Below are positions 1,245 through 20,494 of a stretch of DNA of 64,000 nucleotides, in pieces. The translations under genes and the position numbers were made by a program. A model generated the notes under the pieces. That model made no database searches and was not told the DNA's origin. It saw nothing but the letters and a program-made list of their open reading frames with translations. The stretch is from Flavobacteriales bacterium (GTDB lineage: Bacteria; Bacteroidota; Bacteroidia; NS11-12g; UBA9320). Where the stretch lies: contig JACJZU010000001.1 of assembly GCA_020635435.1 (NCBI GenBank), positions 361,450 to 425,449 on the forward strand. The letters are read 5' to 3'. Numbering within the stretch: position 1 is the first letter of the stretch; every line of letters begins with the position of its first letter.

Positions 1245-1362
1245 TCGAGGCGATCAGAACCGATCAGCGAAATGTGGATACACTGCCAATAGTGCGGCTG
1301 GATAAATGTGTCAGATCCGGTCAATCCGGACCTTTTATCGACCAACTGTTTCAAAAATTAAC

Positions 1363-1383
1363 TTATAGTAATTTGTACTTTAA
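1363..1383. promoter_or_regulatory. 21-bp palindromic operator, copy 1 (TTATAGTAATTTGTACTTTAA), NrtR-type GT-N7-AC
   Basis: 19/21 identical to the reverse complement of 10777-10797; lies 41 nt upstream of the ATG at 1425. Confidence 0.75.
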
Positions 1384-1424
1384 GTTTTTTGTTGTTTATT
1401 TGATGAACTTTTAAAAGGAAAAGA

Positions 1425-2786
1425 ATGAAAAAGACAGTTACTCTATTCAGCCTGATGGCCCTTGCAAGTATGGGTTTTGCTCAGGCACCTACTACCGGAG
1501 CTCCGGATCCTATGGATGCGGACTCGAATGTGATCTCCCTGTTCAGCGGTGCATATACCAATGTTGGTGTAAACTCCTGGAGAACGGATTGGTCGTCCGG
1601 TAAGCTCACCGACACAACCATCGATGGCAACGCCATGAAGAAATACTATGATATGGGTGTTGTCGGCATTGAAACTACAGGTGCAAACCTGATCGATGCT
1701 TCTGAAATGACGCACATCAATTTCGACCTGTGGACCTCTGATGCGTCTGTTTTCAAGATCAAATTGGTTGATTTTGGTGCAGACGGGATCTACAGTCCTG
1801 CCAATATGGGTGGCGACGATTCGGAACATGAACTGGTTCTGGGAACGAACGACAACAAAAATGAGTGGATCAATTACCAAATTCCTTTGACCTTCTTCAC
1901 AGGTCTTACCGGTAAGGCGCACATGGCTCAGTATATCCTGGTTGCTGAACCATTTGGGACTGCCACCGTTTACATCGACAACATCTACTTCAGCAAACGT
2001 CCGGCTGATGCCATGCCAACAGCAGCTGCTGCAGACCCAACAGCCGATGCCGCCGATGTTATTTCGATGTTCTGCGACAAGTACACCGATGTTACTGTGG
2101 ACACCTGGAGAACCCCTTGGTCTACAGCTACTCTGGAAGATATACAGATCGATGGCAACAACGTGAAGAAATACTCAGCCGTTGGTGTTATCGGTGTTGA
2201 AGCAGTTGGTGCAAATCTGATCGATGCGAGCGAGATGGATTATTTCCACATCTCTGTATTCAGCCCAACTTTCAGTGCCTTCAAGGTCAAATTAGTTGAC
2301 TGGGGTGCCGATGGCGGTTATGCAGGTGGCGATGATACAGAACACGAACTCACTTTCGACGCGCCGGCTAAAGGCGAGTGGATCGATTACAAGATCGCGA
2401 TGTCGGATTTTACAGGACTTACCAACCGCAGCAAACTGGCACAATTCATCTTCGTTGCTGAAACCCGCGGAATTCCAACTGTTTACATCGACAACGTTTA
2501 CTTCAGCAAAGATGCCACCGGAAGCGTAAGCGATGCCGCTCAGAAGGGTATACGAGTTTATCCGAATCCGGCAACTTCAACGCTCAACATCGACCTCAAC
2601 TCGTTCAGCGCAGGTATCGCCAAGGTGGAGATCTGCGACATTCACGGAAGAACAGTACGCACCGAGGACTTGGGAGCGGATCAATTAACTCATTCCCTGG
2701 ATGTGAGCGAATTGAAATCTGGAATCTACTTCGTGAACATGAAGAGCGACGGTAATATCTTCACTCAGCGAATTGTGATCGAATAA
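1425..2786 (+). CDS. T9SS-secreted non-catalytic protein with two tandem carbohydrate-binding-like modules
   Basis: Signal peptide; two homologous repeats of about 175 aa (VISLFSGAYTNV..WRTDWS / VISMFCDKYTDV..WRTPWS; both contain GANLIDASEM, KLVD(F/W)GADG and VYIDN(I/V)YFSK); C-terminal VYPNPA...GIYFV CTD. Confidence 0.8.
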   Translation: MKKTVTLFSLMALASMGFAQAPTTGAPDPMDADSNVISLFSGAYTNVGVNSWRTDWSSGKLTDTTIDGNAMKKYYDMGVVGIETTGANLIDASEMTHINFDLWTSDASVFKIKLVDFGADGIYSPANMGGDDSEHELVLGTNDNKNEWINYQIPLTFFTGLTGKAHMAQYILVAEPFGTATVYIDNIYFSKRPADAMPTAAAADPTADAADVISMFCDKYTDVTVDTWRTPWSTATLEDIQIDGNNVKKYSAVGVIGVEAVGANLIDASEMDYFHISVFSPTFSAFKVKLVDWGADGGYAGGDDTEHELTFDAPAKGEWIDYKIAMSDFTGLTNRSKLAQFIFVAETRGIPTVYIDNVYFSKDATGSVSDAAQKGIRVYPNPATSTLNIDLNSFSAGIAKVEICDIHGRTVRTEDLGADQLTHSLDVSELKSGIYFVNMKSDGNIFTQRIVIE

Positions 2787-2807
2787 TTCACGTCGCTACA
2801 TAATACG

Positions 2808-2837
2808 AAAGGCCATCTTTTCAGGTGGCCTTTTTTT
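2808..2837. terminator. Intrinsic terminator, probably bidirectional
   Basis: AAAGGCCATC-TTTTCA-GGTGGCCTTT hairpin followed by a T run, between convergent genes. Confidence 0.85.
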
Positions 2838-2883
2838 GTGCCCGGATTTCCCAATCCAAAAGGCTATTCCTGTGCTCAGCTGC

Positions 2884-5800
2884 TTACAGATGCGGAGCGC
2901 AATGTACTTCCACCCATTCAATTTGCCCGTTTCGGAGGAATATGCTCCGGGAATCTGCCTCGTTCAACGCATTACCCTCTATACTCCGCTCCTCACCTCC
3001 CGGCTCATGCAACACAATATAGGATCGTTCAGACTGCTTGTAAACGATTGGCGTCTGACAAAACGTAAAGGCAAGACTTCCGGACTCCACAAGCATTGTT
3101 CTCCATTCAGAGCCTAATGAGTAATAGCTGAATTGCGACGGCGCCTCGAGAAATTCCTTCTTTCGAAGTATTCTGGGATCGAATTGCAGACAACCTTTTT
3201 CAATATGAATCCCCAATTCTGCCCAGCGATTGATCACGTCTTCTTTTACCTGTCCGGTCATACCGGGTTGTTGAGCACCCGCATGCATTGGCGTATGGGA
3301 ATAGGCATCTGTAGGGAATGCACCGTACAATTCCGGTGTTTTATTCACACCGATGCCTGCTCTAATTTCGTAGTAATGTTCTACCAAACGTCCGAATATT
3401 TCAGGGTTTATACCTTGTCGTTCGGCACGGTGAATGGTTTCCTGAACGGCCAGTAATAGTTTGGAGACCATATGCCAATAGATGGAACCCAGGCCTTCAT
3501 AACCGAAAAACGTACCCGATCTCCCGGTGAACGCGCTGTGATCGAACATCTGTTCGAAAAGCTCCACCACCTTCTCCCCATGGTCGAAAACCTGTCGTGT
3601 CCAACCCTCCTGTTCGAGCGTTTCCAACGTAAGACGTATATCATCCGCATTGTGGATGCCGGCACTGAAGTGGAATATCCCGTTCTCATCGCGCTCTACC
3701 AATCGTACATCTCCGGCTTCAGCCAGTTGTTCCAACAAAGGGCATGTTTCTGAAAACTCCATGGGTATGGTGTTTTTCTCGAGCATACCAGGAAGCCTAC
3801 GGTTCGGATACAACATGTAACTGTACTGATCCGGACGGTACATGGCACTTGATTTCAAGCTATCCAGTAAATAGAGCGACTCTTCAGCCGATAATAATCC
3901 CGAACTCAGAACAGCGACCTGACCTTCCAACATTTCATATAAATGCCTTACCGCGGCCTTTTCCCCCTGCAAACTGAGTAGGTTATAGGAATGATAGAGC
4001 CCGTCTTTGCGTTTATTGTGCTGTATCGTATCGTCGCAGAACCTCAAAACCAGTTCCAGAAGCGACAGTATTTTTTCGATGCGTATCTCATCTACCCTTC
4101 CAGTTAAACCGGCATAGGCCAGGGCGCGATATTGTTCTCCGACCGCCCCAAGATCATCCACCATAACCCGGCGTGCACGATCATCCATATGTTCTGCCAG
4201 CAGACCAATATGGCGCGCAAACACCTCTTCCAAAGCAACGATCATTTGCGCAACGGGTCGGTTGAATGCAATGGTTTCTGTACCGGAATCGCGCAGGAAC
4301 TGAAACAATTGTTTTACAAACCTGCGCAGGTAACAAAGCGTCACCACAGACACACCATTCCCAACCAGCGCATTGTTCGCATCGTTCCACTCCGGCCTTT
4401 GGGTATTCAGCCAGATTCCGGCCCTTGGAATGAAGTTGCTGAGCTTCGCACAGAGCATCACCATCAGTTTCTCCCCCAAATTGGCTCGCAAGGGTTCTCC
4501 ATCTTCATCCCAAACGAGTTTGCCATCGGCCCCCACTTGTTCCACCCGCGCACGGATCAGATGATCGAGATCCCGATCGAAGAGGATCGTATTCCGCGGA
4601 TCCTGAACAAGATCGTGATAGCTGCGTATGCGATAGGGCACATTAGCATACACGAAAAATGGCTTGTTCAACAAGTGCAGCAATCGATCTGGGTGAAATC
4701 GAGTGCTAAGCTCAAATAATTTGAGGAAGTAGATTATTTGATGATCCCCCCAATAACCAATGTAGGACCAGGGATCATCCTCCTCTTCCACTTCCCAGTC
4801 TATTCCATCTTTCGATATGCGATATGGATTGTATCCATCTAATGTGGACGCATTTAAGAAACGGACCACAAAGCTTTCCGTAAATTCCGGGAAACTGTAG
4901 GCAAGGGCTTCCCAATTCTGAAATATATCGCGCCAATTGCCTTCATAGTTTCTCAATTTGTTCCCCTGTGCATCGCGGGTCTCTATGGAAAAATAGTTCC
5001 ATGGCCTGCTGGGGTCTCCGTGTCGGCGGCTAAAGTAGAGCGGTAAATACTCGTAACACAAACGGATCACATCCGGATCGCCATTTTCACGAGCTTTGGC
5101 TAACAGAACTCCGAGTTCAGATTCGGGTTCCAATCCATCCCAAAAGGCCCTGTTTCGCAAGAAAACTGTATGATTAGCGTGCCGAACATGTTCCAGCAAT
5201 TCGGATCTATGAATGATGTACTCCTCGTCGAATAAGCCCCCGCGCATGATGTTGAACAGCACATTGGAATAATGCCGGGCAGTTGATAGAACATCCGACC
5301 CAAGCTGCATCCCATCACTCATCGCCACAAGTTCACGCAAGGCTCGGCCGCTGGTCTCAATATCAGCCAGAAGTCTGGCCTCCAGATCAGGCTCTTTCAG
5401 CAATTTCCTCAGGTTGTGAATGTCGCTGTGCGAGCAATTCACATCGAATACCTGGTGCCATTGACGACGTTCCCCTGGTTTAAGATCAAGGTTCAACAAA
5501 TTCAGGAATGCACCTTTTTCAGCCATTACATCAGTTTCTGTATGCACATGGGCTCCCTGTCTGAAGGCTTTCACTTGCTTCATGCTCACCAGGTATTCCT
5601 TTACATCCGCACCACACATCCACGCTGTTGTTGCAAGCAGAGCCTCACTCGGTTCAGCTTTATCTATGATCATGGAACTGAGCGCATACATGGCCAGTCC
5701 TGAATCTACATCCAATTCATTGCGCTTATAGGCGTCCACCAGCGTGCTGCGTTGCAACTGCAACTGGGAGGGTACACCCGAAGGCAGAATGTTGGAAACA

Positions 5801-6312
5801 CCGTCAAGCACTTCAACCTGCATGGCTTCATTACCGGTGGCGACGATACTTGAACTTTTTACAAAGCCGTAATGCTCGGAGAAGGTCCACATATAACTGA
5901 AAACCAGACCCAGATCGTGATTCTCTTCCTCGAAAAGTACTTTGTTGCCCGTCGCATTTTTAAGAATGTTCCGGGTGATCGTGAAATATTCATCTCCGAT
6001 AGTTGAAAAGGGCTCCCAGATCTTCAGTTTACCTGCTTCGTTGAAACGCACCAAAGTCCTGTTACCGGTTATCCCGGCCATTTCCAGGATCATATCGTCG
6101 GTATAATAAGGGAACAAGGCCGACTCGGCATTCTTTCTACCCGCAGTAAGCCCCCCATTGCTTCCAATGAACATCCAATGATCGCCTGAGCTCACCAGGG
6201 TCATCAAGAAAGGACGCATACCGGCACAGTCCGGTATCTTGTAGAATATTTCGCCATCTAACCGTACGATCTCCAGTTCACGGCTATTGATTTTTGCTTC
6301 GCTCATCTTCAA
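2884..6312 (-). CDS. Probable GH149 beta-1,3-glucan phosphorylase (cytoplasmic)
   Basis: 1142 aa, no signal peptide. Motifs HWMFIGSNGGLTAGRK, RRHGDPSRPWN, NYEGNWRDIFQNWEAL, DGYNPYRI, YEGLGSIYWHMVSKL and GAQQPGMTGQVKED match GH149 as I recall them; beta-glucanase neighbours support the call. Confidence 0.82.
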   Translation of the reverse strand: MKMSEAKINSRELEIVRLDGEIFYKIPDCAGMRPFLMTLVSSGDHWMFIGSNGGLTAGRKNAESALFPYYTDDMILEMAGITGNRTLVRFNEAGKLKIWEPFSTIGDEYFTITRNILKNATGNKVLFEEENHDLGLVFSYMWTFSEHYGFVKSSSIVATGNEAMQVEVLDGVSNILPSGVPSQLQLQRSTLVDAYKRNELDVDSGLAMYALSSMIIDKAEPSEALLATTAWMCGADVKEYLVSMKQVKAFRQGAHVHTETDVMAEKGAFLNLLNLDLKPGERRQWHQVFDVNCSHSDIHNLRKLLKEPDLEARLLADIETSGRALRELVAMSDGMQLGSDVLSTARHYSNVLFNIMRGGLFDEEYIIHRSELLEHVRHANHTVFLRNRAFWDGLEPESELGVLLAKARENGDPDVIRLCYEYLPLYFSRRHGDPSRPWNYFSIETRDAQGNKLRNYEGNWRDIFQNWEALAYSFPEFTESFVVRFLNASTLDGYNPYRISKDGIDWEVEEEDDPWSYIGYWGDHQIIYFLKLFELSTRFHPDRLLHLLNKPFFVYANVPYRIRSYHDLVQDPRNTILFDRDLDHLIRARVEQVGADGKLVWDEDGEPLRANLGEKLMVMLCAKLSNFIPRAGIWLNTQRPEWNDANNALVGNGVSVVTLCYLRRFVKQLFQFLRDSGTETIAFNRPVAQMIVALEEVFARHIGLLAEHMDDRARRVMVDDLGAVGEQYRALAYAGLTGRVDEIRIEKILSLLELVLRFCDDTIQHNKRKDGLYHSYNLLSLQGEKAAVRHLYEMLEGQVAVLSSGLLSAEESLYLLDSLKSSAMYRPDQYSYMLYPNRRLPGMLEKNTIPMEFSETCPLLEQLAEAGDVRLVERDENGIFHFSAGIHNADDIRLTLETLEQEGWTRQVFDHGEKVVELFEQMFDHSAFTGRSGTFFGYEGLGSIYWHMVSKLLLAVQETIHRAERQGINPEIFGRLVEHYYEIRAGIGVNKTPELYGAFPTDAYSHTPMHAGAQQPGMTGQVKEDVINRWAELGIHIEKGCLQFDPRILRKKEFLEAPSQFSYYSLGSEWRTMLVESGSLAFTFCQTPIVYKQSERSYIVLHEPGGEERSIEGNALNEADSRSIFLRNGQIEWVEVHCAPHL

Positions 6313-6318
6313 CTTTGA

Positions 6319-7848
6319 CTATTTAAATTGATCGTTCAGTACAATTGTTTGTATGCTTTGCGCATCCATACGGGAAGCGACAATTTTTCCATTGATCTCA
6401 ATTTCAATTTGTTCCGGTTTCTCGCTCATATTGAGCACGACCACGACAATTTCTCCACCCGGATTGCGCACCGCTGTGCTCATCAGCCGGTCTGAACTTT
6501 GTTCAATCCCAACCCTTTGCGCGCCCGGTTCAATGAATTTGCTGAAATGTGCCATGATGTAGTAAAGCGGGGTAAAATATGCCTCGTTCGAGGCAGTGTC
6601 TACAATGACCGGAGCCGTACACCAATTCTTAGCGTGATTTGGCCCCCCCTGCCGATCGAGTATCATATTCCAATCCACCCAACCCTCTACATGGCTATTC
6701 AAACAACCAATAATATCCCGTGCATAGCGATATACCGGCACATATTTCGGATGATCCTTTTTCAGGTGTTCCGGAGCCCAATCCCAACCCCAATCCGTGG
6801 CCTCTTTTTTCCAATACCAGGCATCGTCTTTCCATTTGGGGACCTCTGCATCTACACAGCCCTCCGTGTGCAGGATGTGCTTTTCGGGTCCAAGACTTTT
6901 CACATGATCCAGATTCTCAGGCATCCAGTTAGTAGTATTGCTGTACCAATGTACGGCCGTACCGTAGATCGCACTTCGTACCGCGCTGTCCTTGAGCAAA
7001 ATCTCCGACCATTTGATCAATTCTTCATCGCGGTTCTGGTCATAGACCAGGATCTTGGATGATACACCAGCCTGTTTCAGTTCCGGGGCCAGATACCGAA
7101 CCACAAAATCGGCAGTTTCTTCAGGTGTATAGTGCATGGACTCCCAATGCGAATCGTTGCCTAATGGTTCATTTTCTACCGTAAATGCCCAGATATCAAT
7201 GCCTTCTTGTTTCATTTCCAAGGCATAACGGGTAAAAAAACGAGCCCAGCTCGGATAATATTCCTTCAGAAGCTTCCCCCCAAACCATGCCTGGTTATCC
7301 TTCATCCAGGGAGGCGCTGTCCAGGGCGATGCGATCACCTTAAAACCTCGTTTGGAAACACCCTGGGCCATTTTTATCATAGGAATGATGTCGCCCCGGT
7401 CTTCATCCAGAGAAAATGAATTCAGCTGCGTGTCGCCCTCCAGCGGGACATAACTGTATGACCTCAATGAAAAATCACAACTGTTCATGTGCGTTCGGGT
7501 AAGGCTGTAGCGGGCACCATCATCTCCGAAATAGGCTTCAATGATCTCTTTCCGCAATTGCGGATCCAGGGCAAATAACAGATGTGCTGAGGATTCTGTA
7601 AAAGCACCTCCAAAACCGGTGATCTGCTGATAGACTTCAGTTGTATCCAAAATGATCCTCAACACCTCTTTTAGATCAGATGCCCGGCTTGTCGAAGTAA
7701 TTAACTTCAACTTATCGCCGGAAGCCGATGTTTGATAAATGCGGTATCCGGTTTCAGCACCATGCGGAGCGCGAACACATCCAAATCCCGCTAAAATGCT
7801 GAGAAACAGGATGATGGCAACAAGACCTGCATCCCTATTTCCGCTCAT
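6319..7848 (-). CDS. GH30 glycoside hydrolase lipoprotein (glucosylceramidase-like; probable beta-1,6-debranching glucosidase)
   Basis: GFGGAFTE, RTHMNSCDFS, SPWTAPPWMK, VENEP (acid/base), HTEGC (nucleophile), DWNMILD. Lipobox-like AGFGC. Start moved to the ATG at 7848 (ORF track starts at 7884). Confidence 0.9.
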   Translation of the reverse strand: MSGNRDAGLVAIILFLSILAGFGCVRAPHGAETGYRIYQTSASGDKLKLITSTSRASDLKEVLRIILDTTEVYQQITGFGGAFTESSAHLLFALDPQLRKEIIEAYFGDDGARYSLTRTHMNSCDFSLRSYSYVPLEGDTQLNSFSLDEDRGDIIPMIKMAQGVSKRGFKVIASPWTAPPWMKDNQAWFGGKLLKEYYPSWARFFTRYALEMKQEGIDIWAFTVENEPLGNDSHWESMHYTPEETADFVVRYLAPELKQAGVSSKILVYDQNRDEELIKWSEILLKDSAVRSAIYGTAVHWYSNTTNWMPENLDHVKSLGPEKHILHTEGCVDAEVPKWKDDAWYWKKEATDWGWDWAPEHLKKDHPKYVPVYRYARDIIGCLNSHVEGWVDWNMILDRQGGPNHAKNWCTAPVIVDTASNEAYFTPLYYIMAHFSKFIEPGAQRVGIEQSSDRLMSTAVRNPGGEIVVVVLNMSEKPEQIEIEINGKIVASRMDAQSIQTIVLNDQFK

Positions 7849-9091
7849 AAACACGCACGTGGTCCACGATAAATTCCTGCTCACTTATGTCTGGGTCTAT
7901 GCCTTTTGCACCACCCCAACCTCCTCCTACAGCCAGATTCAAGATAATATTCTGCGCTTTGTGGAATGGCCATTCCAGGGTATCCGCATTCTTATCATAG
8001 GTATAGTAACGCTTCCCATCAACCGATCCATAGATCACGTCCGGATACCATTCCACCGAATAGGTATGGAACGAATCGCGCATATGATGCACTACCGTAT
8101 CGGCACCGATCTGATTTCCCTGCTTAAAATAATAACTTCGGGTATGGCAAGTCGCATGATTGATCCCGTGTCCGGTCTCCGGATCCATCTCAAAACCGAC
8201 AGATTCCAATACATCGATCTCCCCACAATAGGGCCACGAGATCTCGTCGCGGTAAGAATCACCCAACAACCAACCGGCAGTCCAGGTACCACGTCCGCCC
8301 GGGATCTTAGCCCGGAATTCGATCTTGCCGTAGGTGAAAGAAACCTTACCCTGAGTCGTGAGCCGGGCCGAAGTCCAGGAACCGGTATTAGCGTCCTTTA
8401 CCGCCCCTATTCTCAATACACCGTTCTCAACCCGTACATTCTGTGTATCCGCAAGTGTATAATACTGAAGTTCGTTATTTCCCCAACCCCAGTTTCCTAC
8501 ATTATATGCCCACTTGTTACTATCCGGCAATCCGGAACCATCAAATTCGTCGCTCCATTTTAATTGCCATTCCGTGCCATCCATGTTCTGGATCTGATTG
8601 GTAGGTGTGGTCTTGTGCGCGTGCATCAGTTCAAGGTGTATGGATCTTAACAAGACCCGATCACGCTCGGCATGGATTCGAATGTTGTGTTTGCCTTTTT
8701 GAAGCGGAGAACCATCTATGTTTGATCCGTCCTCGTTGAAAAGCATATTACCGGTTATGTTGTACGTGCGCCCATCGGTATTATGAACGTAATCCTCTAG
8801 CCATATAAACCCCGAATCGGAACTTCCGGCAACACGCACTCGATACCTTCCGCTAACCGGAACATCCAATTCATATTCCGCCCAGGAACCGGGTGTCATT
8901 TCAAGAGCATCCTGTTCTACCCGGATGTCGCCTTCTATAGCCAAATGCTCAGAGAGTTTGAAAACCAGTCCTTGAACCGACCCTTCTCTATTGCTCTTGC
9001 ACGAAACAACCGAAAGCACCAAAAGGAGGGATGCAAACGGCATGATCGACCGGGTATATCTGCTGATGGATACCTGAAATTTCTGCATCAT
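7835..9091 (-). CDS. GH16 endo-beta-1,3-glucanase (laminarinase type) lipoprotein with N-terminal CBM-like module
   Basis: WSDEFDG, WGNNELQYYT, WPYCGEIDVLE (E-x-D-x-x-E), LNLAVGGGWGG; lipobox VVSC. Confidence 0.92.
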   Translation of the reverse strand: MMQKFQVSISRYTRSIMPFASLLLVLSVVSCKSNREGSVQGLVFKLSEHLAIEGDIRVEQDALEMTPGSWAEYELDVPVSGRYRVRVAGSSDSGFIWLEDYVHNTDGRTYNITGNMLFNEDGSNIDGSPLQKGKHNIRIHAERDRVLLRSIHLELMHAHKTTPTNQIQNMDGTEWQLKWSDEFDGSGLPDSNKWAYNVGNWGWGNNELQYYTLADTQNVRVENGVLRIGAVKDANTGSWTSARLTTQGKVSFTYGKIEFRAKIPGGRGTWTAGWLLGDSYRDEISWPYCGEIDVLESVGFEMDPETGHGINHATCHTRSYYFKQGNQIGADTVVHHMRDSFHTYSVEWYPDVIYGSVDGKRYYTYDKNADTLEWPFHKAQNIILNLAVGGGWGGAKGIDPDISEQEFIVDHVRVYERK

Positions 9092-9097
9092 CCGACC

Positions 9098-10660
9098 TTA
9101 GCTACCTACAAGGGTCTCTTCGAGTTCTTCCAGCGACTTACCCTTGGTCTCGGGTACAACGCGGATAATAAAGATCAACCCGATCGCTGCGAACAATGCA
9201 TATAGGGCAAATGTCCCGGCATTACCGAGTACCTGCAACTCATATGGGAACACCCATTGAACCACGAAACTCACCGCCGAGTTGATCAGCCCCACGAAGG
9301 AAATAGCAACCCCACGGATCGCATTCGGGAATAACTCCGAGAACAACACCCACATAACCGGACCGATCGATATGGCAAAACAGGCCACAAAACCCAGTAT
9401 ACCACTGAGGATCAGGATCGGGTTGGTGGAAATGGCAGCTGCTATGATCTCGGAAGAATGGGTAGACAACTCTTCGGCAGATAAAACCTTGGAGAGTGCC
9501 TCGTTGAATTGCAGGTCGCTTTCGAAAGTGCGATCTGCGATCGAGGCCAGTCGTTCCACCGGAACGGTGCCGGAGAGTGCCTCAAGAGATTCACTGCTGA
9601 GCGTGTAACTCGATGAATGGAAACCGTATGCGAGCAGAAATAGGCTCAGTGCCATACCGCCCACTCCAAATACGAGCAATGGCTTGCGCCCCAAACGATC
9701 GATGAATAATAAAGCAAGTATGGTAAATACCAGGTTCGTCAAGCCTACCATGATAGCCTGAATGAAAGAAGCATCCGTCCCAATTCCGGACTGTTCAAAG
9801 ATCATTGGAGCATAAAAGAACACAGAATTGATACCTGTGATCTGTTGGAGGATGGCAACCACAATACCAATGGATAATACCAAACGCATACGCTTCGTGA
9901 ATAGGTCGCGCACCCCGTGAGAAACTTCCTCAACCTTGGTTTCCATGCTCTCGCGGATCTCGTTTACGGCACGGTTCGCTTCGTTTATAGACGATAAGCG
10001 GGCAAGCACTTGTTTGGCTTCATCGAAACGCCCTTTTAGAATGAGCCACCTCGGACTGCGCGGAACGAAGAACAAACCGGCGTAATAGAGAACAGCGGGA
10101 ATGGTCTCTAAACCAAGCATCCAACGCCAGTTGTATTCGTTGAATTTCAGTTTCAACGCCCAGGGGGCATCACTTTTACCCAACTGCAGGATCAAATAGT
10201 TCGTAAAAAAGGCCAGTGAAATACCGATCACAATATTGAGTTGGTTGAAAGAAACCAGGCGACCCCGCATAGCAGGTGGTGCCAGCTCGGCAATGTACAT
10301 AGGCGCCAGTATCAGTGAAGCCCCTACCCCGAAGCCCCCGATCATTCGGGCAATTACCAAGGCAAGAAAAGTTGGAGCGAGTGCGGACGTGATCGCAGAA
10401 ACGGCATATAGGATCGCCGCATAGCGCAATACAGTACGCCTGCCAAACCGATCACTGATCGGACCGGCCACCATCATGGCCAAAGTGGAGGTGAGCGTGA
10501 GTGACGCCACCGACCAACCCAATTCAAGTTTCGTGAGTCCGAACTCGGGCTCGATGAATTTCACTACACCCGATATAACGGATGCATCAAATCCCATCAA
10601 TAAGCCCCCAAGTGCAACGATGAGAGCGATCAACATGACCACCGGATTACTGTTTTTCAT
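9098..10660 (-). CDS. MFS sugar porter
   Basis: GGLLMGFDASVISG, DRFGRR, PMYIAELAP, PRSPRWL, QQITGIN, DRLGRKPL, PETKGKSLEE. Confidence 0.95.
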   Translation of the reverse strand: MKNSNPVVMLIALIVALGGLLMGFDASVISGVVKFIEPEFGLTKLELGWSVASLTLTSTLAMMVAGPISDRFGRRTVLRYAAILYAVSAITSALAPTFLALVIARMIGGFGVGASLILAPMYIAELAPPAMRGRLVSFNQLNIVIGISLAFFTNYLILQLGKSDAPWALKLKFNEYNWRWMLGLETIPAVLYYAGLFFVPRSPRWLILKGRFDEAKQVLARLSSINEANRAVNEIRESMETKVEEVSHGVRDLFTKRMRLVLSIGIVVAILQQITGINSVFFYAPMIFEQSGIGTDASFIQAIMVGLTNLVFTILALLFIDRLGRKPLLVFGVGGMALSLFLLAYGFHSSSYTLSSESLEALSGTVPVERLASIADRTFESDLQFNEALSKVLSAEELSTHSSEIIAAAISTNPILILSGILGFVACFAISIGPVMWVLFSELFPNAIRGVAISFVGLINSAVSFVVQWVFPYELQVLGNAGTFALYALFAAIGLIFIIRVVPETKGKSLEELEETLVGS

Positions 10661-10776
10661 ATTATTCCATTCCTAATCAAAGGTGAAGAAATTTCTCCTC
10701 CCCGTCACAACTCGACCAATTCACTGAAAATCAACAACTTCACACAAATTGTTTTGTCGAATTAACTCTTTTTTTC

Positions 10777-10797
10777 TTAAAGTAAAAAGTACTATAA
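10777..10797. promoter_or_regulatory. 21-bp palindromic operator, copy 2 (TTAAAGTAAAAAGTACTATAA)
   Basis: AGTA-N5-TACT core in the divergent MFS/regulator intergenic region, just upstream of a TATGTTTG -7 element at 10809-10816. Confidence 0.78.
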
Positions 10798-10808
10798 CCA
10801 AATTTGGA

Positions 10809-10816
10809 TATGTTTG
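10809..10816 (+). promoter_or_regulatory. Bacteroidota -7 promoter element TATGTTTG for the rightward operon
   Basis: Exact TAnnTTTG match 9 nt before the ATG at 10826. Confidence 0.6.
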
Positions 10817-10825
10817 TGTAGCTCT

Positions 10826-11563
10826 ATGATCAACAATAAGTTCGGTTCTGTAGATCATTTCCTATCTGAAAACAACCTCCCTTTCGAGGATTTTTTCAGA
10901 TTCGGATTGTCGGTGGACTGCGTGATCTTTGGTTATCACCATGGTACGCTCAAGGTACTGCTCATTCAACGCGGGGCTGATCCGTTCAAATACCAATGGG
11001 CCATCCCCGGAGATCTGGTGAGCCCTGAAGAAGATCTCGATTCCTCTGCCGAACGTATTCTCCAACATCTAACCGGGTTGAAGGATATATATGTAGAGCA
11101 ATTTCACACCTTCGGACAACGGGATCGACACCCGGCCGGTCGAGTTGTAACAGTTGGTTATTTTGCTTTGGTGGAAAGTGAGAAATACCAACCGGTTGCC
11201 TCCCATTGGGCATCCGACATCGGTTGGTTCGATATTCGGAACATTCCGCCCCTGGCTTTTGACCACGACGATATTCTCGCCAAGGGAATCGAATTCCTGC
11301 GTAAAAAAGTCCGAACCGAACCGGTTGTGTTCAATTTGCTTCCGCCCAAATTCACCTTACTGGATATTCAGGGTCTGTACGAAGCACTATTGCTCGAAAA
11401 ATTCGACAAACCAAACTTCCGGAAGAAGATATTGAGCACCGGTGTACTTGTTCCCCTCGATGAGGTTCAAACCAATGTAGCCCACCGGCCCGCCAAACTC
11501 TTTCGCTTTGATCAGGAACGCTATGATACACTTAAAGGAAACACGATCAATTTTGAACTGTAA
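10826..11563 (+). CDS. NUDIX-wHTH transcriptional regulator (NrtR/AraR/XylR-like)
   Basis: SVDCVIFG..LKVLLIQR..WAIPG, degenerate NUDIX box, LAFDHDDIL, LLPPKFTL, NFRKKIL, HRPAKLFRF. ATG at 10826 preferred (ORF track starts at 10814). Confidence 0.92.
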   Translation: MINNKFGSVDHFLSENNLPFEDFFRFGLSVDCVIFGYHHGTLKVLLIQRGADPFKYQWAIPGDLVSPEEDLDSSAERILQHLTGLKDIYVEQFHTFGQRDRHPAGRVVTVGYFALVESEKYQPVASHWASDIGWFDIRNIPPLAFDHDDILAKGIEFLRKKVRTEPVVFNLLPPKFTLLDIQGLYEALLLEKFDKPNFRKKILSTGVLVPLDEVQTNVAHRPAKLFRFDQERYDTLKGNTINFEL

Positions 11564-12881
11564 CAGATACATAGGCAGCCTCATCATTGCTGTACTCAGC
11601 TTTTGCGCTTCGGCTCAACCTATAAAAGTGGAAGTCGTTCAGACCAATTCGGGGTATCAACTTCTTCGTGACGGGAAGCCCTATTATATTTTGGGAGCCG
11701 GAGGACAGGTGCATCTGGATGAACTCATCGAATGTGGTGGAAATTCCATCCGCACATGGAGTCTTGAAAACGCTCAGAAGTACCTGGATGAAGCACATAA
11801 ATACGGGCTAACCGTGACCATGGGACTCTGGGTTCAGCACGAAAGGCATGGATTCAATTACGACGATGAGATCGCCGTTAAGAAACAACTCGATTATTTC
11901 ACCCGTAAAGTAAAGGAATTCAAAGATCACCCGGCCTTACTCATGTGGGGGATCGGCAATGAGGTCGATCTGTTCTACAGCAATACCAAGGTTTGGAAAG
12001 CCATCCAGGACATAGCCAAAATGATCCACGAAGTTGACCCCAATCACCCGACCTGCACGGTGACTGCCGGTTTGGACCCCAAAGAGGTCGCTTTGGTGAT
12101 GCGCGATGCGCCGGATATTGATATCTATGGGATAAACACCTACGGTGAATTGAAACTCGCCGTAGACAGCATCGATCATTTCGGCTGGAAAGGGCCTTAC
12201 CTGATCGCCGAATGGGGTCCAGATGGTCACTGGGAGGTTCCCCTCACCAAATGGGGTGCTCCCATCGAGCAAAGTAGCAGTTCGAAAGCAAAGAGCTATG
12301 CCAAAAGATACCAATTGATACGCGCAGAGCCGAATTGTATCGGCTCCTACGTATTTCTTTGGGGGCACAAGCAGGAAACAACGGCAACCTGGTACGGCCT
12401 GTTCACGGCCGATGGCAGCAGTACCGCTCCGGTCGACGAATTGTACAAGGCCTGGAGGAATACAGCCCCGCCGAATTCATCCCCGGCCATCGAGAATTTC
12501 GGCATTCAACGGAACGGTCAACCCGTTCCCGATAACATCCTCACCTCCGGCGCCCGATTCTCCGCCTTTGCCAATTTTACCGATCCCGACAACGATGCGT
12601 TGAAATACTCCTGGGAGATCATCTCCGAAAGTACCGATACCAAGGCCGGTGGCGATGCAGAGAGCGCCCCTCCCGCCATTCCGGGGCTTATTAAGAAAAG
12701 GACTAAAGGGGCCATCGAATTCAAGGCACCTAAAAAAGAAGGAGCATACCGACTCTTCATATCCGCGAGCGACGGAAAAGGGAAAGTCGGTTACACCAAT
12801 ATACCTTTCTATGTGAGTCCCGACCTCAACAAACGCCAGGGAGTTAAACTAAAAGAACGTCAACTGGACTTCAGCTACTGA
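11508..12881 (+). CDS. Clan GH-A TIM-barrel glycoside hydrolase (GH2_C-like, possibly GH158 beta-1,3-glucanase) with C-terminal Ig-like domain
   Basis: GGNSIRTW, HPALLMWGIGNE (acid/base), GINTYG, YLIAEWG (nucleophile), YVFLWG; signal peptide ending ASA|Q. True start uncertain, possibly TTG at 11553. Confidence 0.72.
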   Translation: MIRNAMIHLKETRSILNCNRYIGSLIIAVLSFCASAQPIKVEVVQTNSGYQLLRDGKPYYILGAGGQVHLDELIECGGNSIRTWSLENAQKYLDEAHKYGLTVTMGLWVQHERHGFNYDDEIAVKKQLDYFTRKVKEFKDHPALLMWGIGNEVDLFYSNTKVWKAIQDIAKMIHEVDPNHPTCTVTAGLDPKEVALVMRDAPDIDIYGINTYGELKLAVDSIDHFGWKGPYLIAEWGPDGHWEVPLTKWGAPIEQSSSSKAKSYAKRYQLIRAEPNCIGSYVFLWGHKQETTATWYGLFTADGSSTAPVDELYKAWRNTAPPNSSPAIENFGIQRNGQPVPDNILTSGARFSAFANFTDPDNDALKYSWEIISESTDTKAGGDAESAPPAIPGLIKKRTKGAIEFKAPKKEGAYRLFISASDGKGKVGYTNIPFYVSPDLNKRQGVKLKERQLDFSY

Positions 12882-12883
12882 TC

Positions 12884-14521
12884 GTGTTCAACAAACTCCA
12901 CATAATCGATTTGAGCGTACTTGGACTGTACTTCCTCGCTGTGTTCGGAGTAGCCCTTTTCTTTTTCCTTCAGCGCAAGGATCGAAAGGAGGATAATGCC
13001 ACAGATGATTACTTCCTGGGTGGACGAGACCTGAGTTGGTGGGTCATTGGTGCATCCCTGTTTGCATCGAATATCGGATCCGAACATCTCATTGGTTTGG
13101 CAGGTGCCGGTGCGTCCGGAAATTTCGCCGCCGGTCAGATCGAAATTCTCGCCGCGTTCATGTTGTTACTGCTCGGCTGGTTCTTCGTTCCATTCTATCT
13201 GAAAAGCGGCGTTTACACGATGCCCGAATTCCTCGAACGCCGTTACGATCCATGGGCCAGAAATTACCTGAGCTGGGTATCCATAGCAGCATACGTACTC
13301 ACCAAAATTTCAGTGACCATAGCCGCCGGTGCCATTGTATTCAAAACCTTGCTGGGGATCGATTTTTGGTCCGGAGCACTCCTCATCGTTGCCCTGACAG
13401 GTCTCTACACAGTATTGGGTGGTTTGAAAGTGGTAGTCTACACAGACTTTGTCCAAATGCTCATCCTTGTTGTCGGATCTATCGCATTAACGTACTTCAG
13501 TTTGCACAAACTCGGTGGATGGGGTGAATTGGTTGCCCGAACTAAACCGAGCGACCTGAGCCTCTGGCGTGGCGCCTCGCACGCAGACTTTCCATGGACG
13601 GGCATAATTCTCGGGGCCCCGATCCTCGGCGTTTGGTATTGGTGTACCGATCAGTTCATCGTTCAGCGAGTTCTGGCAGGGAAGGATCTCAACCACGCCC
13701 GTGTCGGAACTATCTTCGGCGGTTTTTTAAAGCTATTACCTCTCTTCCTTTTCGTTCTTCCCGGAGTAATTGCTCTTGCTCTTTCTCAAGGCGACTCGGC
13801 ATCGATGCAATTCCCGAACAAAGCGGACGGATCTCCCAATTACGATGCCGCATTACCCCTGCTCACCATGTCGGTTCTGCCTATCGGATTCAAGGGACTC
13901 GTAATTGCAGGCCTGCTCGCAGCGCTTATGAGTTCTTTGTCGTCCGTGTTCAACTCGTGCAGTACACTGTTCACCATGGACATTTACAACAAGTGGGTTC
14001 CCGATGCATCTCAACGGCACTTGGTTCGGGTTGGTCAGGTTGCAACTGTAATTCTCGTGCTTCTGGGCGTTGCCTGGATCCCCTTCATGCAATTCATTAA
14101 AGGAGGTCTTTTCCAAAAATTGCAGAGTGTTCAGGCTTATATATCTCCCCCTATCGCCGCGGCATTTTTATTCGGGATATTGAGTAAGCGGGTAACTTCC
14201 AAAGCAGTTAAGATCGCCTTACTCACCGGAGCCTTTTTAGGAGTGGCGCGGCTCACCTTGGAAGTTGCGCAGATCGAACTTTCCGGGCCGCTATACGCCT
14301 TTGCTTCGATCAATTTCCTGCATTTTGCATTTCTGCTTTTTGTGTTCTGCAGCTTGATCCTCTTCTCATTTTCCAGAACCTCCGAAGAGAAACCACACCA
14401 TGAAATTGCCGATATTACCTGGAAGAAACGCAGACTTGCGTCGATTCCCCTAAATGGGAATACGATCTTATCTGCACTGTTATTTCTAGCCGTTCTAACA
14501 CTTTGGATAGCCTTTAAATGA
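12884..14521 (+). CDS. Sodium:solute symporter (SGLT-like sugar transporter)
   Basis: YFLGGR, SLFASNIGSEHLIGLAG, TMPEFLERRY, YWCTDQFIVQR, SSLSSVFNS; many TM helices; GTG start. Confidence 0.95.
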   Translation: MFNKLHIIDLSVLGLYFLAVFGVALFFFLQRKDRKEDNATDDYFLGGRDLSWWVIGASLFASNIGSEHLIGLAGAGASGNFAAGQIEILAAFMLLLLGWFFVPFYLKSGVYTMPEFLERRYDPWARNYLSWVSIAAYVLTKISVTIAAGAIVFKTLLGIDFWSGALLIVALTGLYTVLGGLKVVVYTDFVQMLILVVGSIALTYFSLHKLGGWGELVARTKPSDLSLWRGASHADFPWTGIILGAPILGVWYWCTDQFIVQRVLAGKDLNHARVGTIFGGFLKLLPLFLFVLPGVIALALSQGDSASMQFPNKADGSPNYDAALPLLTMSVLPIGFKGLVIAGLLAALMSSLSSVFNSCSTLFTMDIYNKWVPDASQRHLVRVGQVATVILVLLGVAWIPFMQFIKGGLFQKLQSVQAYISPPIAAAFLFGILSKRVTSKAVKIALLTGAFLGVARLTLEVAQIELSGPLYAFASINFLHFAFLLFVFCSLILFSFSRTSEEKPHHEIADITWKKRRLASIPLNGNTILSALLFLAVLTLWIAFK

Positions 14522-16491
14522 AAAGAACCGTACTATTTATAATCTGCATCTGCTGCCTCCTTTTATCCGCTTGGGCGCAACAGAAACCGTTCCCTCCGAC
14601 GGTCACCCCGATGCCCCAGTCCGAAGGTCAGGATTCGATCAATTACCCGGATCTTGGCTTATTCCCGAAAAAACCGGATCCGGTGCTCTATACTTTCAAA
14701 GTTGGAGGTACATACCGGTTCTTTGGAACCTATACCGTTCAAAAAGATCCATTCCTGATCAGCGAGGCCGGCAACGATACGGTGCTTCAGAAAAATGTGT
14801 TCATTGGCGACGATAGCCAGCTGCCAAACCTCACACTCAATTTCTCAGGTCGGCCCTCCGAACGAACATCCTGGGGATTCGATCTGTATGCATTTCAATT
14901 CCTCGACGGGCAGATCGGCCAAACCTATGGTAACGGCCAGGTTAAGCCGGCAAACCGTCCCAGCATTTATTCCCCGTTATCGGGAACCCGTATGGCCACT
15001 AATTTAGGACTCTTACTCGGGATCAATCTTTACGGGAATTTCCAAACAGATTTTGCATCAATAAGCGTGAAAACAGGAGGGATCCACTGGGTTTCCATTA
15101 GCGACCTTACCCTTCGGGCATTTACAGGCTATAACCGCTTCACTTTATTTGAACGAAATCCCTGGGATCCCGTTGTTAAAGATGTGGAATCCCGCTACAG
15201 CACATTTCAACAAGCCGGGGTGATCAATCAGGATATGCGCTGGGGCGAGCGGGCCTTTACCGGAACCATCGTGGAAATGTCGCAACTACCGGGCGATCTT
15301 ACACTAAAGGCCCTCTACGGTAAAACTGAATTGAACGGAGGTTTCCTTACCATACCTAATCTCTCGTTTGGAGGACAGCTCAAAAAAACGGTTCGATCCG
15401 GATTTGTGGCTATGAATACCTTCAACAACCAAACGTATACCGATAGTTTGAATACTGCCGGCATTGGGTTCAACATCGCCACGATCGAAGTGAGTCAACC
15501 CCTGGCCAAAGGCATCGAACTGCATTCGGAGATCGGAATGGGTCGGTACTTCAGTCCGGAGTTTGAAAACAATTGGGGAGAAGCCCTGAACCTGAAGCTG
15601 CATTTTACGGATGAGATCTCAAAGATCCCGGTGGAGCTGCACTATTTCAGAGTGAGTCCTCGCGTTCTGAACAACAACGCCCTATTCTGGAACACAGCCA
15701 TTGTAGAAACACGGAACAATACGATCCCGGCCGGCGTGGTTGGCAGCAGCGCACTGCTCTTCCCTTTTGCGAGCTCTTTAACCGCCATCGGGCAATTCAC
15801 CAATAACCGACACGGACTCAACATCAACGCCGAGATCGGTAAGAAGAACGCAAAACTTTCCATCGCAAACGGCATCTCCGAGGAACTGGAGGCACTGAGC
15901 GACCAGATCAGCTTCGGACACCCGGTCAACCAGCTCACCCGATCGCGATTCTGGAGATGGAATTTCCCAACCGGAGTTGGACCTTACAACCGTTACAACG
16001 TGATTTTCCGCGACATCTACGAGATCGCCCGCATATCCGGCGGCCCGGTCGCCAAACGCTTTAATGTGATGGAAATTCAAGGGAAGTATAAGTCCCTGAT
16101 CGACCTTAAGAACTTTTACGCATTCCTCCTGTGCAGGTACTCCTCTGTACAGGATTTCCTCTCACCTATCACCGTTTTCTCCGAAAGAGCCTACCTGCGC
16201 CACTACAGCAGCGAGCTCGAGACCTATTACGCATTACACAAGAACCTCGTGTTGGCAACTTATACCGGATACGAACGCATACTCGCCAATTACGATACCG
16301 ATATCGACGATCTGAGTAACCGCCCCAGAAATCAGGAGGGTTGGGGTTTCGGACTCGGACTGGATTACGACTTCGCAAAGAACACAGCGCTTTACCTCCG
16401 ACATCGATGGTTCTCTTTTGAAGACCGAAATTTCATCAAGGACCGTGCAAGCGGTACCGAAACCATTGTAGAGATCAAATTAGCATTTTAA
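14518..16491 (+). CDS. Hypothetical outer-membrane beta-barrel protein A (657 aa, no TonB plug)
   Basis: Signal peptide ending AWA|Q, amphipathic strands throughout, C-terminal ETIVEIKLAF; no plug or carboxypeptidase-like domain recognisable. Confidence 0.65.
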   Translation: MKRTVLFIICICCLLLSAWAQQKPFPPTVTPMPQSEGQDSINYPDLGLFPKKPDPVLYTFKVGGTYRFFGTYTVQKDPFLISEAGNDTVLQKNVFIGDDSQLPNLTLNFSGRPSERTSWGFDLYAFQFLDGQIGQTYGNGQVKPANRPSIYSPLSGTRMATNLGLLLGINLYGNFQTDFASISVKTGGIHWVSISDLTLRAFTGYNRFTLFERNPWDPVVKDVESRYSTFQQAGVINQDMRWGERAFTGTIVEMSQLPGDLTLKALYGKTELNGGFLTIPNLSFGGQLKKTVRSGFVAMNTFNNQTYTDSLNTAGIGFNIATIEVSQPLAKGIELHSEIGMGRYFSPEFENNWGEALNLKLHFTDEISKIPVELHYFRVSPRVLNNNALFWNTAIVETRNNTIPAGVVGSSALLFPFASSLTAIGQFTNNRHGLNINAEIGKKNAKLSIANGISEELEALSDQISFGHPVNQLTRSRFWRWNFPTGVGPYNRYNVIFRDIYEIARISGGPVAKRFNVMEIQGKYKSLIDLKNFYAFLLCRYSSVQDFLSPITVFSERAYLRHYSSELETYYALHKNLVLATYTGYERILANYDTDIDDLSNRPRNQEGWGFGLGLDYDFAKNTALYLRHRWFSFEDRNFIKDRASGTETIVEIKLAF

Positions 16492-16495
16492 CCCC

Positions 16496-18211
16496 ATGAG
16501 AAACAGAATAGTACAAATAAGCCTTTCCGCATTGCTGCTCCTTGGATCCGCTGCCCTTGAAGTGGTGAAGGCGCAAAAAGTTTGGGCATCAGGTGCAGCT
16601 CGGAGCATATTCCAACAGAATAATCTGGATGTTGAAAACGACACTGTATCCCCACGAAAACTAAATAGTGGGCATGCCCTGGTGGATCTGGCGATCAACG
16701 CCCGCCCGAACGACCAAACCTTCCTGCATGCCATGGTCCGTATCCGAAATGATTTCGGAGGCTTCTGGGGATCGGGAGTGACCTTCGACATGAGGCAGTT
16801 ATACCTCAAAGGCCTGATCAAGAACGCTGTCCGCTATCAATTGGGTGATATCGATTACAAATTGAGCAAGTATACCTTCTTCAACAATCAGGAAGAACTT
16901 AGTGCGCAAAGAGCAGAAGCGCTGGAGATCTACAGGGAGATCACACACTACGATCTTTTCTATACGGCCAATAACACCTGGAGGCAGCAAGGCGCTGCTG
17001 TGGATTTCAGCCTGCTTTTCCCCGCAGCATTCGAAGAACTGCAAATGAACCTGTTTGCCTTCCGGAACCGACCTACCGACTTCGGTCAACAAAATGAGCG
17101 CATCTATTTCGGTGGTAACGGCACGCTTATCCAAAGCAGATCCCTGCAATTGGGCGCTAATTTCGTCGACATGATGGATCTGACCGGCACATCGAGAAAC
17201 CCGCAAAGCTTTCATAATCCGGTACTCAGCGGTACAACACAGATCGATCACGAGTGGTCCGATCACAGCATTCAGTTCAATTCGGAATCCGGAATTTCTG
17301 AAATGTATACCCTCAACGACCCGAATTCTCAAACGCTGAGAGACTATTTTATCGATGCTGAGCTGCGTTATGCCTGGAAAAAGAATAGTAAGTTCACAGT
17401 GAACTATATCAACGTAGGTCCCGATTTCAGAAGCGTTGGCGCTCAGAATAAACGCGTGAACTTCGAGGCCCAGAACCTCCTCTATACCCGGATCGGCAAC
17501 GAACAGCAGGTCAGACCCCTAACCCAGTTGGATCTGATGCAGGATGCATCTCTTTATCGAATGAACCTCAATACAAGTCTTCAGGTGTACGCACCTCAAT
17601 ACGACAACATCACACCTTTCGGGGCCGCTACTCCGAATCGCAAGGGACTCACCCTCAACGCGGCTCACGAAACAACCAATAAACTTCTCAACGCAAAAGC
17701 CCAATACCGGATGTTGAGCGAAGTGATCGGACAGGGAACTGAAGAACTGCGCAGCTTTACTTCCCTCATTCTATCCGTTTCCTTCAAATTAGACACTTTG
17801 CTACCTGCTTTTAACAAACCTCTGGAGATCAGTTTCGGTTATACAGATCAAAACACCTCAAGATCCAATGCCATTCCGGAGGCAACGATCGATCTGGGAT
17901 CATCGATCCTAGATCTGGGTTTGAAGATCGGTTTATTAGAGGAAATGGAACTGGTGGCCAACTTCCGAAGTATGAATGCGAGTGGAAACGAGATCATATC
18001 GGTGTGGGATAACTACAGTGAACTGGTCGATTACCAGATATTCAATACTGAAATGAAACAACAACTGCTGATCATAGCCTTGCGTTACCATTTCGACGAA
18101 CGAAATACCCTCAATGCTGTATGGCAAAATCTGAATTATTCCGACAGCACACAGCAGGCACCTGATTTCAACATCAAACAGTTCGGGATCGTTTACAGCA
18201 TGTTCTTTTAA
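16496..18211 (+). CDS. Hypothetical outer-membrane beta-barrel protein B (571 aa), apparent paralogue of A
   Basis: Signal peptide ending VKA|Q, amphipathic strands, C-terminal QFGIVYSMFF; collinear motif blocks shared with 14518-16491. Confidence 0.65.
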   Translation: MRNRIVQISLSALLLLGSAALEVVKAQKVWASGAARSIFQQNNLDVENDTVSPRKLNSGHALVDLAINARPNDQTFLHAMVRIRNDFGGFWGSGVTFDMRQLYLKGLIKNAVRYQLGDIDYKLSKYTFFNNQEELSAQRAEALEIYREITHYDLFYTANNTWRQQGAAVDFSLLFPAAFEELQMNLFAFRNRPTDFGQQNERIYFGGNGTLIQSRSLQLGANFVDMMDLTGTSRNPQSFHNPVLSGTTQIDHEWSDHSIQFNSESGISEMYTLNDPNSQTLRDYFIDAELRYAWKKNSKFTVNYINVGPDFRSVGAQNKRVNFEAQNLLYTRIGNEQQVRPLTQLDLMQDASLYRMNLNTSLQVYAPQYDNITPFGAATPNRKGLTLNAAHETTNKLLNAKAQYRMLSEVIGQGTEELRSFTSLILSVSFKLDTLLPAFNKPLEISFGYTDQNTSRSNAIPEATIDLGSSILDLGLKIGLLEEMELVANFRSMNASGNEIISVWDNYSELVDYQIFNTEMKQQLLIIALRYHFDERNTLNAVWQNLNYSDSTQQAPDFNIKQFGIVYSMFF

Positions 18212-18223
18212 TTTCTGCAAGCC

Positions 18224-19270: not shown

Positions 19271-19271
19271 C

Positions 19272-20483: not shown

Positions 20484-20494
20484 AATTTTCGATC

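Follow-up and report, generated by a model that had tools for sequence, protein, structure and literature searches.

Two 21-bp palindromes as predicted operators of an AraR-like Nudix regulator in a beta-1,3-glucan locus of a Flavobacteriales bacterium

Laminarin is among the largest marine fluxes of organic carbon, and the means by which bacteria turn on its use are only beginning to be understood. In the NrtR family of regulators, the binding motifs mostly have 21-bp palindromic symmetry and a GT-N7-AC core (PMC2330246). Two sugar-responsive members were found described, the characterised AraR and the predicted XylR (PMC4666351, PMC3878776); the operators of BtAraR have the form AAAGTGT...ACACTTT (PMC4666351). 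The polysaccharide utilization loci (PULs) for laminarin carry glycoside hydrolases (GH) of families GH16, GH30, GH149 and GH158 (BguR preprint, bioRxiv 10.64898/2026.01.10.698779). Here a stretch of 64,000 nucleotides from a Flavobacteriales bacterium (assembly GCA_020635435.1, contig JACJZU010000001.1, positions 361,450 to 425,449; in the following, the window) was analysed, which holds two 21-bp palindromes and, at 10826-11563, a gene for a regulator of the NrtR family. The surrounding locus is, judged by family matches, a complete beta-1,3-glucan gene set consisting of GH16, GH30, GH149 and GH158 together with transporters of the major facilitator superfamily (MFS) and the sodium:solute symporter (SSS) family. 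With a probability of about 80%, the two palindromes are the operators of this regulator, which would act as a sugar-released repressor of the locus. The original prediction for this DNA had placed two near-identical palindromic operators in a beta-glucan locus, had assigned them to an NrtR-family product of 10826-11563 from the operator form typical of that family, and had set the second copy over the -33 region of the regulator promoter. All of this was recovered by re-reading of the sequence, by the domain matches of the regulator, by the identification of GH149 and GH158 and by a promoter box beyond the second copy.

Site 1 (operator 1) is located at 1363-1383 and reads TTATAGTAATTTGTACTTTAA. 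Site 2 (operator 2) is located at 10777-10797, between two divergent operons, and reads TTAAAGTAAAAAGTACTATAA, with TTATAGTACTTTTTACTTTAA as its reverse complement. Site 1 and the reverse complement of site 2 share 19 of 21 positions, and the two mismatches (positions 9 and 13) both fall in the non-conserved centre of 5 nt. Both sites are imperfect palindromes of the form TTAWAGTA-N5-TACTWTAA with seven of the eight arm positions self-complementary in each, and both carry GT at positions 6-7 and AC at positions 15-16, which is the GT-N7-AC core of the family. When up to two mismatches are allowed, the pattern TTAWAGTANNNNNTACTWTAA occurs in the window only at sites 1 and 2, against an expectation of 0.03 from shuffled sequences, and with up to one mismatch these are also the only occurrences in the whole assembly of 2.89 Mb and five contigs. 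No site with exactly one mismatch was found in the assembly, and of the three with two mismatches none is palindromic. Sites 1 and 2 are the only ones of the form TTAWAGTA-N5-TACTWTAA in the genome. With a position weight matrix (PWM) trained on orthologous sites, sites 1 and 2 score 29.7 bits each; the next genomic match scores 17.5 bits, below every training site (the weakest has 20.4 bits). No further regulon member was thus found in this genome with the PWM, and the regulon there comprises sites 1 and 2 only. The asymmetry of the palindrome is oriented: towards the catabolic genes (the gene for a protein exported by the type IX secretion system, T9SS, and the MFS operon) it reads TTATAGTA...TACTTTAA, and towards the regulator gene TTAAAGTA...TACTATAA, a rule that is also true in the relatives examined.

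The product of 10826-11563 (forward strand; 245 aa) is identified as an AraR-like member of the NrtR family by its Pfam domains and its similarity to BtAraR. Pfam models matched are NrtR_WHD (82.9 bits, cut-off 27), AraR_C (52.1 bits) and NUDIX (43.1 bits, cut-off 21.1). The NUDIX match covers residues 31-155 of the 249-aa open reading frame (ORF) as scanned and is N-terminal, and the winged helix of NrtR type is C-terminal. Among solved structures BtAraR (PDB 5bs6/5ddg/5deq) is the closest (E = 3.4e-47; 210 residues aligned at 38% identity), ahead of the Shewanella NrtR that responds to ADP-ribose (E = 1.8e-24). The Nudix box reads G62-DLVSP-E68-EDLDSSA-ERILQHLTGL, in which E-R replaces R-E and Q-H replaces E-E, and the catalytic Glu is gone. 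An impaired signature GX5EX7REUXEEXGU is the criterion for a non-catalytic domain (PMC4666351); the degenerate signature therefore points to a domain that, like that of AraR, senses a ligand and does not act as a hydrolase. Homologues of the regulator form 2903 protein clusters at E <= 1e-40, and where these have descriptive names, the names are always 'NUDIX hydrolase', 'NUDIX domain-containing protein' or '8-oxo-dGTP diphosphatase'. Such labels look like a systematic mis-annotation, as the catalytic Nudix glutamates are missing in this protein.

Residues reported for BtAraR (PMC4666351) were mapped onto the regulator and about 50 orthologues, and BtAraR numbering is used for them. The triad that forms hydrogen bonds with the sugar, Arg34/Arg86/His131, is conserved in the regulator and its orthologues. 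The AraR pocket lining Phe36, Gly47, Gly48, Phe49, Val92 and Phe129 is A, G, D, L, V and F here, a difference at three of six positions. Phe36 is replaced by a small residue (usually Ala, as in this protein), and the changes of Gly48 to Asp and Phe49 to Leu are invariant in the about 50 orthologues. In AraR, Phe36 and Phe49 pack against C4 and C5 of arabinose (PMC4666351); smaller residues at 36 and 49 and the new Asp would fit a hexose in the pocket. The DNA-contacting residues Lys179, Arg180, Asn181, Lys184, Lys204 and Arg205, which never vary among AraR orthologues, correspond to K, P, N, K, H and R, so that two of six are changed, in the regulator as well as in all orthologues of its family.

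Comparison with related metagenome-assembled genomes connects the motif with the regulator. Of 37 genomes of the same family, 19 hold a close orthologue of the regulator, and so do many more across the class; a high-scoring site is found 30-110 bp upstream of nearly all of these orthologues, whatever the neighbouring genes. An alignment of the intergenic region between MFS and regulator genes from eight genomes, in which the regulators are 67-75% identical, showed an invariant operator block of 22 nt, CTTAAAGTAAAAAGTACTATAA, followed by TA..TTTG; apart from two short boxes, the DNA around this block is divergent. Among the same-family genomes, the motif occurs in 18 of 19 with an orthologue as against 6 of 18 without one (Fisher p = 1.1e-4), so that the scan of related genomes, which had been proposed as a check, agrees with the assignment for nearly all close orthologues and also returns the motif from some genomes that lack the regulator. 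The number of sites per genome is 2.6 with an orthologue versus 0.5 without, and a reversed control pattern gave the opposite trend (1.2 versus 2.6). A zero-mismatch site in one genome without the regulator (G015) lies inside an ORF and was taken as a chance occurrence. The half-site also covaries with the recognition helix: Lys-Pro at 179-180 in the family of the regulator goes with TTAWAGTA, and Val/Thr-Arg at these positions in a sister family with ATATTGTA. Other families have Ser, Ala or Gly variants in the recognition helix, with a slightly shifted motif.

The promoters were located with the -7 box consensus of Bacteroidota (PMC7366714). In this genome TAnnTTTG is found upstream of genes 230 times in sense versus 52 times in antisense orientation, with a peak 20-40 nt before ATG. 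A -7 box of this form, TATGTTTG, lies at 10809-10816 on the forward strand before the regulator operon, and its arrangement with operator 2 is invariant in the eight genomes. Operator 2 ends 11 nt before TATGTTTG and hence spans the -33 region. Site 1 is positioned 42 nt before the ATG of the gene for the T9SS-exported protein (1425-2786). A terminator-like hairpin with a T-run at 1316-1339 (forward strand), which ends the upstream gene 663-1244, separates site 1 from that gene, so that the site stands in a promoter region of its own. A -7-like box, TTTATTTG, follows at 1395-1402 on the same strand, 11 nt past operator 1 and leaving 22 nt to the ATG at 1425, and the centre of operator 1 holds TTTG, which could be a -33 element. 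In the orthologous promoter of one relative (G001), a perfect TATATTTG comes one nt after the operator. In all promoters examined, 6-12 nt separate the operator from a -7-like box that lies downstream of it, towards the regulated gene. The operator thus covers the -33 region, where one would expect a repressor that acts by keeping RNA polymerase off.

On the MFS side of operator 2, at a distance of 11 nt, there is a conserved box TTAATTCGA (10758-10766, reverse strand), a candidate for an atypical -7 box of a leftward promoter. It is invariant as CGAA.TA in the eight genomes, at 10-12 nt from the operator. A box of the type TTAyTTCG(A) is also present 6-8 nt from the operator in the promoters of T9SS genes of one genus. 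A reading of TTAyTTCG as an ordinary -7 box was not supported: upstream of genes here, TAnnTTTG and TAnnTTCG are enriched, but neither TTAnTTCG nor TAnTTCG is. The box may be a promoter element of atypical form or may be bound by a second factor. Because the MFS-side box is atypical and its form is not enriched, the model is weakest where operator 2 is to control the leftward operon, although a single operator shared between back-to-back promoters plausibly controls it.

As a probe for members of the regulon, for which the original prediction had recommended it, the motif returned none beyond sites 1 and 2 in this genome but gave further ones in relatives. There it precedes a sugar kinase of BadF/BcrA type, divergent from a T9SS gene, a TonB-dependent receptor, and a CBM9/DUF5916 protein (CBM, carbohydrate-binding module) that adjoins GH149. 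In one genome (G027) it precedes zwf-pgl-edd of the Entner-Doudoroff pathway. The sites before the BadF/BcrA-type kinase and zwf-pgl-edd are near GH149 (L059 2933-2953 and 4015-4035; L073 3980-4022). In three genomes of genus g2 the palindrome lies about 110 nt upstream of pckA (L063 3980-4000, L067 4036-4056, L071 4008-4028). Genus g2 also has a second NrtR paralogue, about 40% identical, with an AraR-like palindrome AAAGTGTAAATTTTACACTAA at L104 3752-3772, which adjoins an MFS_1 transporter, a BadF-type kinase and a HAD hydrolase, a further sugar regulon within this branch that is still uncharacterised. The pckA sites of g2 were considered as targets of this paralogue, and this was rejected as its motif is different.

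These observations can be combined in the following mechanism. The regulator would be a homodimer with a dead Nudix-like ligand domain and a domain of the winged helix-turn-helix type (wHTH). The ligand-free dimer would occupy TTAWAGTA-N5-TACTWTAA over the -33 region and so block RNA polymerase. Through operator 2 it would control its own operon (regulator, GH158, SSS symporter, outer-membrane and CBM proteins) and probably the leftward operon (MFS, GH16, GH30, GH149) too, and through operator 1 the T9SS-exported tandem-CBM protein. Entry of a breakdown product of beta-1,3-glucan into the Nudix pocket would separate the wHTH domains, as in BtAraR, and the locus would be derepressed. That both divergent operons and the secreted protein at 1425 are co-regulated had already been proposed, and this is strengthened by relatives, in which conserved sites precede the regulator, the MFS-GH16-GH30-GH149 operon and the secreted protein; repression, and the control of the leftward operon from site 2, we infer from position and from the behaviour of the family.

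Taken with its relatives, the predicted regulon brings together the breakdown of glucan, the uptake of sugar, a sugar kinase and the oxidation of glucose-6-phosphate, just as that of AraR combines arabinan enzymes and the catabolism of arabinose, which points to a monosaccharide as effector. D-glucose is the most likely ligand and is somewhat favoured over all other candidates together. GH149 is presumably cytoplasmic, as no export signal was noted in it, though without a dedicated test; beta-1,3-oligosaccharides must then enter the cell too, and laminaribiose could be the effector. A laminari-oligosaccharide is a less probable candidate, and a sugar phosphate is improbable, as is any other compound. 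ADP-ribose is an unlikely effector, because the AraR-like branch fills the nucleotide space with side chains (PMC4666351).

Some points weigh against the regulator as sugar-released repressor at these two sites. Its binding, the effects on expression and the transcription starts are predictions, the promoter positions rest on consensus -7 boxes, and the effector is suggested by context and pocket residues. On the MFS side the box, TTAATTCG, has an atypical form, one nt short of TAnnTTyG. Arg180, which intercalates into DNA in BtAraR, is Pro here, and Lys204 is His, so that the details of DNA contact must differ. The sites of g2 before the gluconeogenic pckA (phosphoenolpyruvate carboxykinase) misfit a simple sugar-induced derepression. 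Moreover, the assembly is 79% complete, and additional sites could exist.

Three other explanations were weighed. The palindromes could have no function in DNA binding and be chance matches in AT-rich sequence, RNA hairpins or terminators, or remnants of repeats. The sequence is indeed rich in AT, and a small hairpin (-6.8 kcal/mol) is possible at site 1. The predicted hairpin energies range from -1.6 to -6.8 kcal/mol, and the hairpin or terminator reading was rejected since this stability is not above that of shuffled sequence (z = -1.95, +0.62 and +0.98). A chance match or a repeat element is ruled out by uniqueness and conservation: two sites were found where shuffles yield practically none, two copies in a genome make no repeat family, and operator 2 does not vary across the eight genomes. 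A lack of function is thus extremely improbable. The palindromes could also be bound by a different factor, with the Nudix regulator binding elsewhere, and a Crp/Fnr-like protein that binds cyclic nucleotides is encoded at 10-585, 0.8 kb upstream of site 1; the binding of the Nudix regulator to the sites is, after all, a prediction. The motif nevertheless has the NrtR-family form, stands upstream of the regulator gene in orthologous loci irrespective of the neighbours, tracks the presence of the regulator and covaries with its recognition helix, which makes another binding protein very unlikely.

The role of the regulator could differ as well. It could be an activator or have a dual function, or it could rule only its own rightward operon and the T9SS gene, with MFS-GH16-GH30-GH149 separately promoted and unregulated. 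The atypical -7-like box on the MFS side, the distance of 117 bp between the MFS start codon and operator 2, and the pckA sites of g2, which hint at something beyond simple derepression, would all agree with this. The characterised members of the family are, however, ligand-released repressors (PMC4666351, PMC2330246), the operator overlaps the -33 region of clear TAnnTTTG promoters, and the MFS-side box keeps a nearly fixed distance from the operator in eight genomes. An activator or a separately promoted leftward operon is therefore considered unlikely, and repression of the locus by the Nudix regulator through both palindromes is preferred.

The leftward operon (reverse strand) starts with an MFS sugar transporter at 9098-10660 (Pfam Sugar_tr, 366.5 bits), followed by a GH16 glucanase at 7835-9091 (Glyco_hydro_16, 68.6 bits) and a GH30 glycosidase at 6319-7884 (Glyco_hydro_30, 239 bits). 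Its last gene, 2884-6312, encodes a GH149 beta-1,3-glucan phosphorylase of 1142 aa (NCBIfam NF058639, 1578.8 bits, cut-off 1150). On the forward strand, the regulator gene is followed by a GH158 endo-beta-1,3-glucanase with TIM-barrel fold at 11508-12881, whose start codon is uncertain (PDB 9oro, 3.5e-99; 6pal, 6.8e-70), and by a sodium:solute symporter at 12884-14521 (Pfam SSF, 284.6 bits). Five tightly packed genes with gaps of <=13 nt occupy 14518-21364 and encode proteins of 657, 571, 348, 403 and 294 aa; their order is kept in relatives, and they probably share a transcript with the regulator. The 403-aa protein has a CBM9-like domain, besides which no other Pfam or NCBIfam families were found in the five genes. 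No SusC/SusD pair is present in the locus.

The gene 1425-2786 (forward strand) encodes a T9SS-exported protein of 453 aa (Pfam Por_Secre_tail) and is a predicted regulon member under operator 1. In an AlphaFold 2 model (mean confidence score pLDDT 74.7), the protein consists of two tandem beta-sandwich modules similar to CBMs and a C-terminal sorting domain; no catalytic domain was identified in it. Foldseek matched the model to tandem CBM22 (2e-9) and to the Bacteroides surface glycan-binding protein SGBP-B (3e-8), and also to CBM4 and CBM30. Based on this model, it looks like a non-catalytic glycan-binding protein. In two relatives (G001, G004) a site precedes the orthologous T9SS gene at the same position as site 1, and in five others (G007, G016, G027, G030, G033) one or two sites precede a non-orthologous T9SS protein that likewise has two modules and adjoins GH149 at this same position. 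In many other genomes a T9SS gene and the regulator gene are immediate divergent neighbours, with one to three sites at 23-bp spacing, reminiscent of the AraR sites in tandem. As read from these gene orders, the T9SS slot under the operator is kept while its protein was replaced in some genera. One such replacement (L043 4549-5949) has the same two-module build as 1425-2786, and only the sorting domain aligns.

Several uses follow from this assignment. The regulator and its operator are conserved across several families of aquatic Bacteroidia and offer a ready probe sequence and a purifiable protein. Beta-glucan regulons can be predicted in uncultured genomes, including their unannotated outer-membrane and glycan-binding proteins, and the labels 'NUDIX hydrolase' and '8-oxo-dGTP diphosphatase' among the 2903 related clusters can be corrected. 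A broader view is offered tentatively: the group might be a D-glucose-sensing repressor of NrtR type, widespread in aquatic Bacteroidia and reaching the sugar kinase, zwf-pgl-edd and pckA in some genera. In lineages whose laminarin uptake does without SusC/SusD, it would then switch central carbon metabolism in response to glucose, a cytoplasmic logic beside that of BguR.

In comparison with known systems, the regulator is most similar to BtAraR (BT0354; PMC4666351; PDB 5BS6, 5DDG, 5DEQ). Both have an inactive Nudix-like sugar pocket and a wHTH domain, and both have 21-bp semi-palindromic operators with GT-N7-AC at the same offset, in some promoters as tandem sites 2-3 bp apart. In both, the regulator is encoded inside the operon that it controls (here by prediction), and both regulons consist of polysaccharide-degrading enzymes, transporters and monosaccharide catabolism, the last of these found in the relatives in the present case. 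The two differ in the half-site (TTAWAGTA here, AAAGTGT in BtAraR), in the DNA-contact residues Arg180/Lys204 (Pro/His here), in the pocket residues Phe36/Gly48/Phe49 (Ala/Asp/Leu here) and in the context, which here is that of beta-1,3-glucan (GH16, GH30, GH149, GH158) with no arabinose genes (araMPRDAB). On DNA-contact residues, pocket residues and gene context, orthology with AraR was rejected, and by the same comparison the regulator group is a separate orthologous group within the AraR/XylR sugar branch of the NrtR family.

BtXylR (BT0791; PMC3878776, PMC4666351) is likewise a sugar-linked NrtR member of Bacteroidota predicted by comparative genomics; it differs in its xylose catabolic genes, and the comparison with the regulator is one by description only. 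The classical NrtR of Shewanella oneidensis (PMC2330246; PDB 3GZ5) shares the family, the operator form and the repressor logic, the latter being predicted here, but has ADP-ribose as effector and NAD synthesis as regulon. The locus thus extends the AraR/XylR type of regulator to what would be a new sugar; it is not a new kind of system and leaves the understanding of the NrtR family itself unchanged. No link of Nudix or NrtR regulators to laminarin, GH149 or GH158 was found among the papers that could be searched. The one type of laminarin regulator found described is BguR (2026 preprint, bioRxiv 10.64898/2026.01.10.698779), which also controls loci with GH16, GH30, GH149 and GH158. BguR is an unrelated, membrane-spanning one-component regulator of LuxR type from marine Flavobacteriia and acts on PULs with SusC/SusD, whereas the locus described here has no such pair and suggests a different and simpler logic, that of a predicted cytoplasmic, sugar-binding repressor of AraR/XylR type with a defined 21-bp operator.

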